A DNA stretch of 64,000 nt. Source: Eubacteriales Family XIII. Incertae Sedis bacterium. GTDB lineage: Bacteria > Bacillota > Clostridia > Peptostreptococcales > Anaerovoracaceae. The notes under the pieces were generated by a model that worked only from the letters and a program-made list of their open reading frames with translations, had not been told where the DNA came from and ran no database searches. Position 1 is the first letter of the stretch; each line of letters starts with the position of its first letter. Position numbers and translations under genes: made by a program. Below, piece by piece: positions 3,960 to 63,555 of this stretch. Where the stretch lies: contig JAAYNC010000062.1 in assembly GCA_012521055.1 (NCBI GenBank), positions 14,315-78,314 on the forward strand, read 5' to 3'.

Positions 3960-4433
3960 TTAAAGATCCTCTTCCTCCTCTTCTTCCTCATCGTCGTGCT
4001 CGAATTCGGAGTCAGGATCAAAACCCTTCAAGCCTTCCAGCTCAAGGCCATGCTCTTTAGCATATACATAAATGGCGTTTTTAATAGCCTGTTCAGCAAG
4101 AACTGAACAATGTATTTTGGGTCCCGGAAGTCCGCCGAGCTCGTCTACGAAGTTCTGATTGGTCAGCTTCAATGCTTCTTCTAAGGTCTTACCCTTGATC
4201 ATTTCCGTAGCTACGCTGGAGGAAGCGATTGCAGAGCCGCAGCCAAAAGTTCTGAACTTGGCATCGACAATCACATCATTTTCTACCTTTAGAGAAATTT
4301 CCATCATATCTCCGCAAACGGGGCTGCCGTAAGTGCCTACAGCGTCGGCATCCTCGATGACTCCAACATTTTTAGGGTTCGTGAAATGTTCCATGACTTT
4401 TTCATTGTACATACCCATTTTTTTATTGCTCAT
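3960..4433 (-). CDS. nifU: NifU/IscU-type Fe-S cluster scaffold protein with a poly-acidic tail
   Basis: Scaffold cysteine motifs are present (GSPVCGDMM, FGCGSAIASSS, KIHCSVLA). It lies directly downstream of the cysteine desulfurase gene. Confidence 0.9.
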   Translation of the reverse strand: MSNKKMGMYNEKVMEHFTNPKNVGVIEDADAVGTYGSPVCGDMMEISLKVENDVIVDAKFRTFGCGSAIASSSVATEMIKGKTLEEALKLTNQNFVDELGGLPGPKIHCSVLAEQAIKNAIYVYAKEHGLELEGLKGFDPDSEFEHDDEEEEEEEDL

Positions 4434-5831: not shown

Positions 5832-6284
5832 TTAAGGATTAATAGCATTAAGCTCGGAAAGTTTGTAACCGGATCCGGTTCTTTTTAGAACTATATTGTA
5901 ATCGACGGATTGAATATAATCGCCTTCCGGACCCTTCATATGCCAGAGAATTTCGCTCCTATATGACTTGTATCCGTAAAGACCCGAAATCTGCTCCAAC
6001 ACCAAAATCTGCATGGATTTAACCGGATCCATATCCGTATCGACAAAGTCGCGAAGGCTTTTTATATCCGAAGCAAGCAGAGGTTGGGTCTCTATCTCAT
6101 AGAGAAGCTTCTCTCCCCTTTCAGCATCGATTTCGTGAAAATATACTTTATGAAAAATCTCAGTTCGCTCCTTCAGCAGCTCTTCCACCAGTATAGCGTC
6201 TGAAGTCCCGGAAAATCCGGAGAAGAATGTGAAAAAGATAACCAACATAAAAGGTATTAAAAATACATTTAGATAATACTTCAT
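5832..6284 (-). CDS. hypothetical membrane-anchored protein
   Basis: ORF with one N-terminal hydrophobic segment. The start is placed at the MKYYLN ATG (6282-6284), 7 nt after AAGGAG. No recognisable motif. Confidence 0.5.
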   Translation of the reverse strand: MKYYLNVFLIPFMLVIFFTFFSGFSGTSDAILVEELLKERTEIFHKVYFHEIDAERGEKLLYEIETQPLLASDIKSLRDFVDTDMDPVKSMQILVLEQISGLYGYKSYRSEILWHMKGPEGDYIQSVDYNIVLKRTGSGYKLSELNAINP

Positions 6285-18015: not shown

Positions 18016-18045
18016 AAAAATCAAAAGGGACTGTCCCTTTTGATT
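18016..18045 (-). repeat. palindromic terminator-like element, copy 1 (AATCAAAAGGGA-3 nt-TCCCTTTTGATT)
   Basis: Perfect 12-bp arms followed by a T-run on the minus strand. The arms are identical to those of the element at 63520-63546. Confidence 0.7.
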
Positions 18046-18112
18046 CTTTGCTCTTATTCGTTTTTGGCATTTATTTTTTTCGCCTATTTGAAGCATTATC
18101 TTTTTGGTGGCG

Positions 18113-58748: not shown

Positions 58749-60314
58749 TTATTCCAATGTAAGCCTTCTCGCCTCTTCGAACTCTTCGATGACGCTCTCA
58801 TCCGGCTCTTTGGAAAGTTTGGATACGACGATAATGAACAGACATGAAATGACAAATGCCGGGAACAGCTCATAAATGCCAAAGACGCCGCCCATAGGTT
58901 TCAACAATAATTTCCATATGAACACCATGCCTCCGCCGCTGAGCATGCCTGCAATTGCCCCTGCTCTGGTCACGCGTTTCCAGAACAAAGAGAACAGCAT
59001 AATAGGCCCGAAGGTGGCTCCAAAACCGGCCCAGGCAAAAGAAACGACTATGAATATCACGCTATTTTCATCCATGGCGATGATCATGGAGCAGATAGCA
59101 ATAATAATCAAAGTAATCCTTGTGCAATATAGAACTGTTTTGTCTGAAGCTTCTTTCTTAAATATGCCCTGGAAAATGTTCTTGGAAAAAGCAGATGCGG
59201 CGATCAGCAAATATGAATCGGAAGAACTGATGGTAGCCGCTAAAATACCCGCCATTACAATTCCTGCAATCAAAGGTATGAAGAAACTGGTTGAAAGCAG
59301 GATAAACACGTTCTCCGCGGAACTCTGGGTCAGGAAGGTGCTGGGATAAAGGGCTCTTCCAATGATGCCGATGAACACTGCGGCGAAAAGGGAAATGGCA
59401 CACCATATTATGGCGATTCTTCTAGACATTTTCAGTTCTGAAGGATTTTTAATGGCCATAAACTTCAAGAGCACCTGAGGCATGCCAAAATAGCCCAGAC
59501 CCCAGGAAAGTGTTGAGATTATGGTCAGGAATCCGTACGGTGCAGCGTCTCCAAAGAGAGGCTTTCCACCCTCTCCTATCTGCTGAACGCCATCAGCCAG
59601 AATAGGTTGTGCGATTCCAAAAAACTCAAAGAATCCGGGAATCTGCTGCACATTTTCAATTACCGCGGATATGCCTCCGGCGGCGCTGACTCCTGCAATC
59701 ATAACGATCGCCAATGAGAAGAACATGATTACCCCTTGCATGAAATCCGAAGCGCTTTCGGCCAGGAATCCGCCGATATATGTATAAAAGACTACAAAGA
59801 CCGCTCCGGCAATCATCATGTATTGATACTTTGTCCCGAACAAAGTGCTGAAGAGCTTACCCATTGTTACCAGGCAGCTCGCTGCGTAAACCGTGAAGAA
59901 AATAAGAATAAATAAAGCCGCAATCGTCATAATAACTTTTTTGTTCTCTTTAAACCGGTTGCTGAAAAAGTCAGGGATAGTTATAGCATCACCTGCAACG
60001 ACAGTATAGTTGCGTAGTCTCTTTGAAACGAAAAGCCAGTTAAGATATGTACCGATCAAAAGACCTATGGCAGTCCAGGCAGCATCGCTAAGGCCGTACC
60101 AATAGGCTACGCCAGGCAATCCCATAAGGAGCCAACCGCTCATATCCGAAGCTTCTGCTCCCATGGCGATGATCCAAGGTCCGAGTGACCTACCTCCTAT
60201 CAGATAATTATCGCTGCTTTCTCCCGCTCTCTTGGCGTAATATACGCCGATACCGATTACCACTGCCATATAGAGCACCATGGCTATGAAAATCTGTCCT
60301 TTGTCCCCAATCAT
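58749..60314 (-). CDS. putP: sodium:proline symporter (SSS family)
   Basis: 521-aa polytopic protein with a PutP-like N-terminus (YLIGGRSLGPWIIAMGAEASDMSGWLLMGLPG). Confidence 0.85.
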   Translation of the reverse strand: MIGDKGQIFIAMVLYMAVVIGIGVYYAKRAGESSDNYLIGGRSLGPWIIAMGAEASDMSGWLLMGLPGVAYWYGLSDAAWTAIGLLIGTYLNWLFVSKRLRNYTVVAGDAITIPDFFSNRFKENKKVIMTIAALFILIFFTVYAASCLVTMGKLFSTLFGTKYQYMMIAGAVFVVFYTYIGGFLAESASDFMQGVIMFFSLAIVMIAGVSAAGGISAVIENVQQIPGFFEFFGIAQPILADGVQQIGEGGKPLFGDAAPYGFLTIISTLSWGLGYFGMPQVLLKFMAIKNPSELKMSRRIAIIWCAISLFAAVFIGIIGRALYPSTFLTQSSAENVFILLSTSFFIPLIAGIVMAGILAATISSSDSYLLIAASAFSKNIFQGIFKKEASDKTVLYCTRITLIIIAICSMIIAMDENSVIFIVVSFAWAGFGATFGPIMLFSLFWKRVTRAGAIAGMLSGGGMVFIWKLLLKPMGGVFGIYELFPAFVISCLFIIVVSKLSKEPDESVIEEFEEARRLTLE

Positions 60315-60489
60315 AAGCTACTCCTTGTCTAATTTCTTGTAGAATCCATAAAACATGTATACATTAATGCAATATGTTTTTAACTTTATCACATTATCAC
60401 TCAACTTTAAATATCCCTATTTGAAAAACTTGTATTTGCCCTCAATTTACATTTAATGTCTGGCGCATTCTACAAATATCGGACTGAAA

Positions 60490-60812
60490 GCAGCGACAGC
60501 TAATTATCAAACTAAAACATCGCTGCCCTTCTCGAGCCAGGTCAACGAAATCTTCATCAGAAGCAAAATCGTCGATGCTTTTTCCTGACAGAGTCAACGA
60601 AATCCCCACCCGAAGCAAAATTATCGATGCCTTTCCCTAGCGAAGTCAACGATAACCTTAATCGGAACCAAATCGTCGATGTTTTTTTCTGACAGAGTCA
60701 ACGAAATCCCCACCCGAAGCAAAATTATCGATGCTTTTTCTTGACAAAGTCAACGATATATATCAACTAAATCGTGTTATCGTTGCTCACTTTCATGAAA
60801 ATCAACGCGTGA
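60490..60812. repeat. array of six full and one partial 52-bp tandem units, each with an internal dyad
   Basis: Units start at 60490 (divergent), 60541, 60593, 60645, 60697, 60749, and 60801 (partial). The consensus is GTCAACGAAA-N~18-AAATCGTCGATGCTTTTTCCTGACAGA. Units 60593 and 60697 are almost identical. The period is not a multiple of 3 and all frames contain stops. Confidence 0.9.
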
Positions 60813-60918
60813 GTTGTATTGGGCATCTGAAAGACACCAACTACAGATTCTATTTTTGTAACATTATCTGGGCAGAGTCGTAATATATACCAAAGTTTTA
60901 TATAACCGGAGGTACGTC

Positions 60919-61839
60919 ATGTTGTCCAATCGTGAATTTGTGAGAGAATCTCTCGGCTTACATCTGTTTTTCGCCCGCATCATGAAAGAGCACGCCTTTT
61001 TCATGGAAATCGGATTTACACCAAAGGACAGAAACTTTACTGAAGCAGCAGATGCATTTAGAATTGCCTTTGATCGTATTTTGGAAGAAGTAATCCGACT
61101 TTCTGATTGTTCCATCGGAGCCGAATATCTGGACTCAGAAGAAGCAATCACACCATACACATTAAGAGCTGAAGAAGCTTCCATCTTCTACACCGGAGTT
61201 CGCATCAACACCGAGCTGACAAGGATGGAAAGCGAACTGTCAGCCGACGGACAATGCCGTGAAGATAATATGAAGGTTCAAAGAGTACACGATCTCAATC
61301 AAAGAATTATCGATTTACTCAGCCGGTTCATAGATTTCAAAATGAGAGTTTTGGATGATATGCTGACATGCAAAATGTTCACCGTAAATTACCCCTTACT
61401 GATAGACCATATTATGCGAGAAGCCATCTTGTACAGAATGCTATTGCAAAGGCTGAATGAAAATGAAGAGGTCGACATTGAACGGGAAGCAATCGAACAG
61501 GAAATGTTCTGGAATAGAATTATGGCAGAGCATTCCTTGTTTATTCGTGGCCTTCTCGATCCTACAGAAAACGATTTAATCGTAGCCGCAAACAACTTCG
61601 GCAATGAATTCAATGCTCTCTATGAAAGATCAAGAGAAGCCATGGACCTGACAATGTCTATATCCCAGTTAACCCAGGACAGTCTGGATGCTACAATGAG
61701 AATAAGCGAATTCAACGCGCAAGGCACCCAAGGCATTTTGGATTGCAAAGTACGGTCCATCATCATTCCGTTGCTTGGAGACCATGTATTAAGAGAATCT
61801 AATCATTTTATAAGGTTGTTAAGGAAATATTCCGGATAA
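60919..61839 (+). CDS. DUF2935-like two-repeat helical protein (tentative)
   Basis: There are two internal repeats of the pattern hFaRIMkEHahFh (LHLFFARIMKEHAFFMEIG and EMFWNRIMAEHSLFIRGL). The family assignment is from memory. Confidence 0.55.
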   Translation: MLSNREFVRESLGLHLFFARIMKEHAFFMEIGFTPKDRNFTEAADAFRIAFDRILEEVIRLSDCSIGAEYLDSEEAITPYTLRAEEASIFYTGVRINTELTRMESELSADGQCREDNMKVQRVHDLNQRIIDLLSRFIDFKMRVLDDMLTCKMFTVNYPLLIDHIMREAILYRMLLQRLNENEEVDIEREAIEQEMFWNRIMAEHSLFIRGLLDPTENDLIVAANNFGNEFNALYERSREAMDLTMSISQLTQDSLDATMRISEFNAQGTQGILDCKVRSIIIPLLGDHVLRESNHFIRLLRKYSG

Positions 61840-62942: not shown

Positions 62943-63360
62943 TTTGTTTAAAGCAATGTCATGCTTCTCCTGCTCTTGGATGTACTTTTTTATCGTTTCC
63001 TCGTTGAGGCCAACTGTGCTGACATAATACCCTTCTGCCCAAAAGTGACGATTGCTAAATTTGTATTATATTATAAGTTTGCATGTTTATCCGAACATCA
63101 TGACTTTTCCCTTTGAGATATCCCATGAAGCTTGAAACGCTAATTTTAGGTGGTATACTTACCAGCAGATGAACGTGATCCGGCATCATGTGTCCTTCGA
63201 TTATCTCTACTCCCTTGTATTTACTTAGCAGTTGGATTATCTCTTTCAAGCTTTCACGGTATTGATAATAGATCATCTTTCGTCCATACTTTGGGGTGAA
63301 CACTATGTGATATTTGCACATCCATTTTGTTCGAGCTAAGCTATGGGCTTTATTGGCCAT
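62934..63360 (-). pseudogene. tnpA: IS200/IS605-family Y1 transposase (tnpA) with frameshifts
   Basis: MANKAHSLARTKWMCKYHIVFTPKY...PDHVHLLVSIPPKISVSSFMGYLKGKS, then the frame is lost. The rest (YKFSNRHFWAEGYYVSTVGLNEETIKKYIQEQEKHDIALNKL) is in another frame at 62940-63065. Confidence 0.85.
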
Positions 63361-63516
63361 TAAAATCGCCTTTTCTTTCGTCACAAAGTGGCTTGAACAC
63401 TCCACATTATAACGGAAAGGGGATTTTTTTGTATAACTATTGACGCGCACCCGCATAGCGGGTGGTTTTCTGTTTCGCACGCTTTGCGTGCTCAACTGGC
63501 TTATAAGCCTGTAAAT
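62934..63516 (-). mobile_element. decayed IS200-like element (left end with hairpins; right end missing or truncated)
   Basis: The approximately 155-nt left end upstream of tnpA contains hairpins (CCCGC-ATA-GCGGG and GCACGC-TTT-GCGTGC). No tnpB is present. The 3' boundary runs into the ATG-less ORF. Confidence 0.6.
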
Positions 63517-63519
63517 AAA

Positions 63520-63546
63520 AATCAAAAGGGACAATCCCTTTTGATT
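63520..63546 (-). repeat. palindromic terminator-like element, copy 2
   Basis: AATCAAAAGGGA-CAA-TCCCTTTTGATT plus a T-run lies 10 nt after the stop of the 63556 gene and abuts the IS200 left end. Confidence 0.7.
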
Positions 63547-63555
63547 TTTGTGATA

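Follow-up and report, generated by a model that had tools for sequence, protein, structure and literature searches.

A 52-bp tandem array between putP and a DUF2935 gene as the likely expandable core of a composite interspersed repeat in the Anaerovoracaceae

Background

The boxB module of pneumococcal BOX elements is about 45 bp long, and the sopC centromere of plasmid F is composed of 43-bp tandem units, each of which contains a dyad. BOX elements as a whole follow the plan boxA-(boxB)n-boxC, vary in copy number among strains and can modulate neighbouring genes (PMC3049150). In Porphyromonas gingivalis, the BrickBuilt MITE carries a minisatellite inside the MITE; the unit measures 23 nt, there are 19 elements per genome and promoter elements are contained in them (PMC4596501). 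REPINs and BIMEs are paired inverted REPs with a spacer and mosaic REP arrays, respectively.

Here we describe an array of 52-bp units in the window, i.e. the whole 64-kb stretch of DNA that was analysed, where it is located between the divergent genes putP (58749-60314, minus strand) and DUF2935 (60919-61839, plus strand). We consider it likely that this array constitutes the inner, expandable part of a composite interspersed repeat that belongs to an Anaerovoracaceae lineage, and that it probably represents semi-selfish repeat DNA rather than a dedicated putP switch.

Units and period of the array

A first-pass annotation of the window had described a non-coding tandem array with a 52-bp period, and this proved to be real. 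For 60541-60756, Tandem Repeats Finder reported a period of 52 with 4.2 copies, 71% matches and a score of 243, and for the same array at period 104 it gave 2.3 copies, 85% matches and a score of 340. The self-identity of the array amounts to 0.66 (lag 52) and 0.72 (lag 104), compared with about 0.25 at other lags, and a degenerate pattern of the 52-bp unit matches five times in the window versus 0 times in 100 shuffles. Stop codons are present in all six frames of the array, which rules out a coding repeat.

Six full units and a partial one had been counted. Five are indeed clear, with starts at 60541, 60593, 60645, 60697 and 60749 and a span of 60541-60800. The one at 60489/60490-60540, however, is a degenerate head unit that is spaced 51 bp, not 52, from the next unit and is identical to the other window units at 23-29 of 52 positions, and the stretch at 60801 contains only ATCAACGC, followed by a tail hairpin and a palindrome remnant. 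Two unit subtypes are found in the array, B (GTCAACGAAATCCCCACCCGAAGCAAAATTATCGATG...) and A (GTCAACGATAACCTTAATCGGAACCAAATCGTCGATG...). Since units 60593 and 60697 agree at 46 of 52 positions, the layout is not of the repeat-spacer type, as had been recognized before. A CRISPR array is also rejected on the grounds that the variable 19-nt stretch consists of two recurring subtypes common to units and loci, and that a 52-bp period is too short. The earlier statement that the unit has no described counterpart holds as well.

In the window lineage, the 604-bp stretch between putP and DUF2935 is identical in at least ten metagenome contigs of independent origin, except for one substitution in each of two contigs. 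Turnover is therefore slow, and the region is not hypervariable on short time scales.

Layout of the composite element

The array is part of a larger element with the order palindrome remnant, head unit, alternating A/B units, terminal unit, tail hairpin and palindrome remnant. Its parts and the two conserved flanking regions are given below; units of the window are denoted w, and x and z are the arrays at the coa and dinB loci that are introduced in the following section.

60315-60425, minus strand: conserved putP upstream region, outside the element; 80-90% identical to the relatives L072 and L069
60426-60475, plus strand: left palindrome remnant (REP-L), AAACTTGTATTTG...CATTTAATGTCTGGCGCATTCTACAA; a decayed TTGyATTTGG-TGTCTGACAC-TTTTTACAA
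60476-60540, plus strand: head, with linker ATATCGGACTGAAAG and degenerate unit w0 carrying the dyad GCAGCGA/TCGCTGC; collinear with the x and z arrays
60541-60748, plus strand: four internal 52-bp units, w1 (B-like), w2 (B), w3 (A) and w4 (B), from the repeat and pattern results
60749-60785, plus strand: terminal unit w5 with the perfect dyad CAACGATA/TATCGTTG; equivalent to x4 and z4 by alignment
60786-60813, plus strand: tail hairpin of CTCAC, an 18-nt loop and GTGAG; the x and z arrays have GGAGC...GCTCC at this place
60812-60852, plus strand: right palindrome remnant (REP-R), AGTTGTATTGGGCATCTGAAAGACACCAA CTACAGATTCTA; placed like the intact solo palindrome of relatives
60853-60918, plus strand: conserved DUF2935 upstream region, outside the element; contains TTTGTAACATTATCTGGGCAGAGTCGTAATATATACC and the ribosome-binding site GGAGGT

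Each of the internal units w1-w4 reads GTCAACGA-N23-TCGATG-N15, with profile E-values of 1e-15 to 1e-17, and their subtypes are common to the other loci. The L058 (x) and L076 (z) arrays have an intact palindrome on their left to which REP-L can be aligned, and REP-L is syntenic with the palindrome upstream of putP in L069 and L072. REP-R occupies the position of the intact solo palindrome AAACTTGCATTTGGTGTCTGACACCAAATACAAGTT that precedes DUF2935 in L069-L071 and L075. The three best palindrome-profile matches in the 64-kb window, which are individually weak, fall in REP-L (one) and REP-R (two). As the stem of the tail hairpin is weak (5 bp), the tail part of the window element is assigned by position only.

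Homologous copies at other loci

When one genome per species (185k species) was scanned with a strict pattern of slightly more than one unit, 21 matches were obtained, and only that in Firmicutes bacterium UBA3932 (L014) is real; the others are chance matches in coding sequence, including a Bryobacteraceae gene family. L014 has a period-52 array between coaBC and coaX. A strict pattern matched 37 times in metagenomes, and again only two matches are real (L050 and L058), both identical to L014. The window and L058 are collinear with 71-78% identity, which includes about 45 bp of the left flank and the degenerate first unit. In the window's own lineage (L076-L082), the coa locus holds one unit between two inverted palindromes, and a search with the unit profile revealed a third array, of five units, in L076, between an HD/ODP operon and dinB and 3 kb away from the coa locus. 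We refer to the five-unit coa copy as x, to the one-unit coa copy as y and to the dinB copy as z.

The composite is thus found at three intergenic loci with unrelated flanking genes, namely putP/DUF2935, coaBC/coaX (L014, L050, L058) and the HD/ODP operon/dinB (L076), all of them between divergent genes, and it has conserved ends and a variable internal copy number. Database searches with the unit, which had been suggested as a check, were successful for these two other loci but not for plasmids, phages or Rfam. One should bear in mind that the term "dispersed family" is based on three loci, a small sample, and that the family was seen within about 100 kb of this genome; the 7 kb to the left of the window hold no further copies. 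Assignment of the y and z loci to the window's genome is based on two assemblies: in GCA_050953345.1 the window region is on contig 1 (L092) and the y/z loci are on contig 2 (L077), and in GCA_900198705.1 the sequence L004 (99.9% identical to the window) and L078 are on one scaffold.

The latter assembly (L004, L050, L078; FZPS01) contains both the one-unit coa locus (scaffold 1) and the five-unit version (contig 213), and beside the window block it has an N-gap and is broken at a repeated hairpin. This suggests a strain mixture combined with repeat-induced scaffolding errors. The differing flanks of L004 were dismissed as evidence for mobility, since one of them is due to a scaffold N-gap and the other to a break at a recurrent terminator-like palindrome.

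A common plan underlies the three arrays. It begins with a palindrome of the REP type (core GTGTCWGACAC; arms TTGyATTTGG and TTTTTACAA), which is followed by a head unit (w0, x0 and z0 resemble each other), B/A units, a terminal unit (x4 and z4 alike, w5 more weakly so) and a tail hairpin, after which the coa copies have inverted palindrome(s). Many units find their best match at another locus rather than in their own array; the head unit w0, for example, is closest to x0 at the coa locus (36 of 52 positions) and not to any window unit. Conservation of unit types across loci instead of within them indicates that the composite was already structured before it was copied, and that it was copied whole.

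Copy number differs between loci and between lineages. The number of internal units is one, about three or about four, depending on the locus; the window copy exceeds x and z by one unit, and its 104-bp super-unit shows 85% self-identity. A comparison of copy number, as recommended in the first-pass annotation, did uncover differences between lineages: the coaBC/coaX locus has one unit in the L076 lineage versus five in the L058 lineage, and the HD/ODP-dinB locus five versus 0 (solo palindrome only), with flanking genes that are 95-96% identical (about 95.5%). At the coa and dinB loci of more distant relatives there is a solo palindrome at most.

At the last unit junction of x and z, a long, near-perfect 14-bp hairpin, ATCGATGCCTTTTCC-CGG-AGGAGGCATCGAT, was observed (L076 5765-5795, minus strand; L058 around 4060-4095). 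It arises because the left arm of the terminal unit is changed to GCATCGAT, and a junction hairpin of this type is absent from the window array. Upstream of dinB, a GAACGTATGTTC motif that resembles a LexA (Cheo) box is conserved (L076 around 6044-6060, L058, L083, L086); it lies outside the palindrome and the array.

Tandem direct repeats that each contain an inverted repeat, with a period of about five helical turns, could also be expected of a centromere-like or iteron-like array or of a chromosome-organising site. The array lies in a chromosomal context, however, and the roughly 5 kb to each side of it contain neither partition nor replication genes. Searches of plasmids and phages by blastn with the array and its flanks gave no match, pattern scans of viral contigs with the unit and the palindromes found nothing, one locus has a single unit, and close relatives have no array. 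We regard such a site as extremely improbable. As to the earlier proposal of an iteron-like or recombination substrate, a recombination substrate comes nearest to the evidence, whereas the iteron-like part is disfavoured.

The putP-DUF2935 locus in relatives

Neither the closest relatives, L069-L071 (DUF2935 gene 94.6% identical at the nucleotide level), nor L072-L075 have a 52-bp array at this locus. In L069-L071, a LysM-amidohydrolase gene is divergent from DUF2935, and upstream of DUF2935 there is a solo palindrome followed by sequence matching window positions 60853-60918; this stretch is nearly unchanged in L069, L072 and L075, all of which are without the array. L072-L074 (about 81% nucleotide identity) show the order putP, Fer4, LysM-amidohydrolase, then divergent DUF2935, and the homology of L072 to the window's putP upstream region ends around 60428, at the start of the left palindrome. 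From the solo palindromes and conserved flanks of the relatives, it appears that the window array lies between two ancestral palindromes, where it replaces about 3.3 kb.

A comparison of window 60315-60918 with L072 394-4001 and L069 1227-4001 shows that the genes for Fer4_16 and LysM-amidohydrolase, which lie between putP and DUF2935 in relatives, are missing from the window lineage. In L069, the place of putP is taken by an IS110-family transposase that ends around 1226.

The first-pass annotation had named an array that is absent or variable in close relatives without effect, transcription or binding, or one that matches the end of a known mobile element, as findings that would speak against its proposals, and this is essentially the situation encountered here: L069-L075 are without the 52-bp array, paralogous copies differ in unit number, and the array belongs to a dispersed composite repeat that resembles a mobile element. 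Its proposal of in-phase operator sites for a regulator of putP and/or DUF2935 is not borne out, as the gene-proximal sequence is kept in relatives without the array and the element also occurs beside unrelated genes.

L069 does have another array, at 1437-1648 just right of the putP-upstream palindrome, with a period of 53, about four units, two alternating subtypes and a dyad TGTCTA-N14-TAGACA. Its position is equivalent to that of the window array, beside REP-like palindromes, and the best rotated alignments of the 52-bp and 53-bp units are no better than those of shuffles. The 52-bp family, known from three loci, and the unrelated 53-bp family of the sister lineage show A/B alternation alike, and both lie in divergent promoter regions. 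This could mean that the palindromes of these Anaerovoracaceae genomes seed arrays with a period set close to five helical turns, irrespective of unit sequence. We judge this to be rather improbable. If it were true, the fixed period would point to a length-measuring nucleoprotein architecture or copy mechanism, for instance in-phase sites on which a recombinase or a nucleoid protein assembles, or mobile promoters in tandem, and the arrays would constitute a new class of promoter-region architectural element instead of junk repeats.

REP-like palindromes and signs of mobility

The palindromes form a family of about 35-45 bp with the core GTGTCWGACAC and the arms TTGyATTTGG and CCAAATrCAA or TTTTTACAA. 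Five copies were located in 12.7 kb of L058 (1730, 3830, 4163, 4206, 7104) and three in 6.8 kb of L076 (630, 2732, 6017); solo palindromes occur in L069 (3880-3915), L075 (1-30), L086 (1125, 4038) and L088. They are therefore short, dispersed and present both singly and as inverted pairs, as are REP sequences and REPINs or BIMEs. Three of the four palindrome sites with checked flanking genes are between divergent genes, and the fourth (L072, upstream of putP) is between co-directional ones. A GTAG or CGTC tag is not evident in the palindromes.

No RAYT is encoded in the window, where the sole Y1 protein scores 24 bits on the RAYT model (cutoff 80 bits). This protein, which lies near the array and was considered as a RAYT candidate, matches IS200/IS605 TnpA instead (91.6 bits, truncated); its gene is at 63055-63534 on the minus strand and covers profile positions 3-83 of 126. 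A perfect hairpin, AAAAATCAAAAGGGAC/GTCCCTTTTGATTTTT, is found at the 5' end of tnpA (63517-63549) and recurs at 18016-18050 of the window and several times beyond its right end (L004 9347, 10538).

Inverted palindromes flank the x and y copies, and z has a palindrome on its head side only, with a possible 6-bp direct repeat, CAACTT. Among the three loci we found no transposase, clear terminal inverted repeats, clean target-site duplication or clean empty site.

Dyad, covariation and RNA structure

Each unit had been credited with a covarying internal dyad. The dyad as such is present, in perfect form in the terminal unit and in the first unit, but covariation does not back it. In a comparison of 17 units from the three loci, four arm pairs (3:37, 4:36, 6:34, 8:32) do not vary at all and a fifth, 7:33, is retained in 16 units, so that the arm pairs are uninformative for or against pairing. 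The central pair 5:35 is of the standard (Watson-Crick) type in three of the 17 units; the others have A.A (8), A.C (2), T.T (2) or G.A (2). The G-C pair of unit 60490, which had been taken for a compensatory change, is the sole double change in the set. The covariation analysis that was called for gave a score of 0.047 versus 0.086 in shuffles, 490 of 500 shuffles being equal or higher, and the compensatory reading cannot be upheld.

These data also bear on the proposal that the array is transcribed into an RNA with reiterated stem-loops, which would sponge a protein or attenuate in several steps. Such an RNA would fit in with the short dyad that precedes a T-rich tract in every unit, and with the 14-bp hairpin at the last junction of x and z. 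Folding of the array on both strands, however, gave energies no better than those of shuffled sequence (z = -1.2), the covariation term of alifold over the three elements is unfavourable (+3.14) and the central pair is mismatched in 14 of 17 units. No terminator-like site was found in the window array, Rfam gave 0 matches both at the gathering threshold (whole window) and at E<=1 (60300-60950), and GGA-type motifs, read directly from the sequence, are inconsistent from unit to unit. A sponge or attenuator RNA is thus very improbable. In a by-eye comparison, none of the candidates CsrA-type sponge, cre, Spo0A, CodY and DnaA box fits the unit.

Promoter-like boxes

TTGACT-N18-GAnnAT, which agrees with the sigma-70 consensus at 9-10 of 12 positions, is present at every unit junction on the strand reading in the direction of the head. 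At the junctions there are two matches at 10/12 in the window and three each at 9/12 in L076 and L058. Those of the window are:

60620-60649, minus strand: putative promoter-like TTGACT-N18-GATAAT toward putP at the w2/w3 junction; a 10/12 consensus match only
60724-60753, minus strand: putative promoter-like TTGACT-N18-GATAAT at the w4/w5 junction; a 10/12 consensus match only

This raises the question whether the repeat has become a cis-regulatory module, whose units would be outward promoters or protein-binding sites and, phased at about five helical turns, would tune the head-side gene (putP; coaBC, dinB) or insulate divergent promoters. In its favour, the promoter-like matches occur at junctions in all three arrays, the intergenic counts exceed those of shuffles in L076 (4 vs 1.1) and L058 (9 vs 2.4), the -35/-10-like pair falls on the two most strongly conserved boxes of the unit, and all three loci are located between divergent genes. 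BOX elements and BrickBuilt likewise affect or drive transcription (PMC3049150; PMC4596501). The count in the window, on the other hand, is at the shuffle level (2 vs a mean of 2.2), the spacer length of 18 bp is not optimal and the -10-like boxes are mostly poor. Moreover, the neighbouring genes are functionally unrelated, near relatives have 0, 1, 5 or 6 units, and conserved candidate core promoters lie outside the element: the strongest sigma-70-like candidates are TTGCAA-17-TATAAT (coaX) and TTTACT-17-TATAAT (coaBC), and that of coaX is also present in relatives without the array. We therefore consider a cis-regulatory module unlikely, albeit with an appreciable chance. With the 53-bp array of L069, the preference for divergent genes and the junction boxes, some room is left for a promoter-related or architectural role, to which we would assign a low but real probability. 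Active boxes would turn the element into a mobile source of transcription for divergent promoter regions.

Proposed origin and implications

Unrelated neighbours, variable copy number, absence from the closest relatives and the missing RNA signal speak against a dedicated operator or structured RNA. The occurrence of the element beside palindromes at three loci, and its absence or shrinkage in close relatives, leads us to favour semi-selfish repeat DNA. On this basis, the composite would have been copied whole between palindrome-bearing intergenic sites, possibly by ectopic recombination or gene conversion via the shared palindromes or by a transposase acting in trans, and units would subsequently have been gained or lost by unequal crossing-over or slippage. 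The window element may occupy a neutral zone between the divergent upstream regions of putP and DUF2935, where relatives have two extra genes. Effects on neighbouring genes would then be a side-effect, as with pneumococcal BOX, through added promoter spacing or outward-reading promoter-like boxes.

If this is correct, the striking array beside putP is not a dedicated regulator, and a palindrome-flanked modular repeat family with an expandable 52-bp core is added to a little-studied, mostly uncultured lineage of Clostridia from anaerobic digesters. Such arrays also break assemblies, as visible in the scaffold gaps and misjoins of GCA_900198705.1, and are usable as strain markers.

Comparison with known systems

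The element is best read as a new modular interspersed repeat that resembles BOX, BrickBuilt and REPIN/BIME in kind, and we claim membership in none of them. With sopC it shares tandem direct repeats of a few tens of bp with an inverted repeat in each; it differs in that there is no partition system and no plasmid context, and in its unconstrained copy number.

In contrast to REPINs and BIMEs, the repeat unit here excludes the palindrome, a GTAG/CGTC tag is not evident, the window encodes no RAYT, and the elements are situated in promoter regions, not at gene 3' ends. In the one-unit coa copy of L076, two inverted REP-like palindromes are nevertheless separated by a spacer of some 60 bp; the palindromes are found singly as well, and their presence or absence varies among relatives.

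BrickBuilt, compared by kind and not by sequence, differs from our element, which has a 52-bp unit with an internal dyad and flanking palindromes. The two have in common a leader, spacerless tandem repeats and a tail, and both are always intergenic.

BOX is likewise compared by kind, not sequence. It belongs to another phylum-level lineage and comes in more than 100 copies, versus three loci here, where the unit is 52 bp long with two alternating subtypes and the end modules are REP-like palindromes that also occur solo. What BOX and the present element share is the architecture of a modular intergenic repeat with conserved end modules and a variable tandem internal module, the copy number of which differs among strains or lineages.
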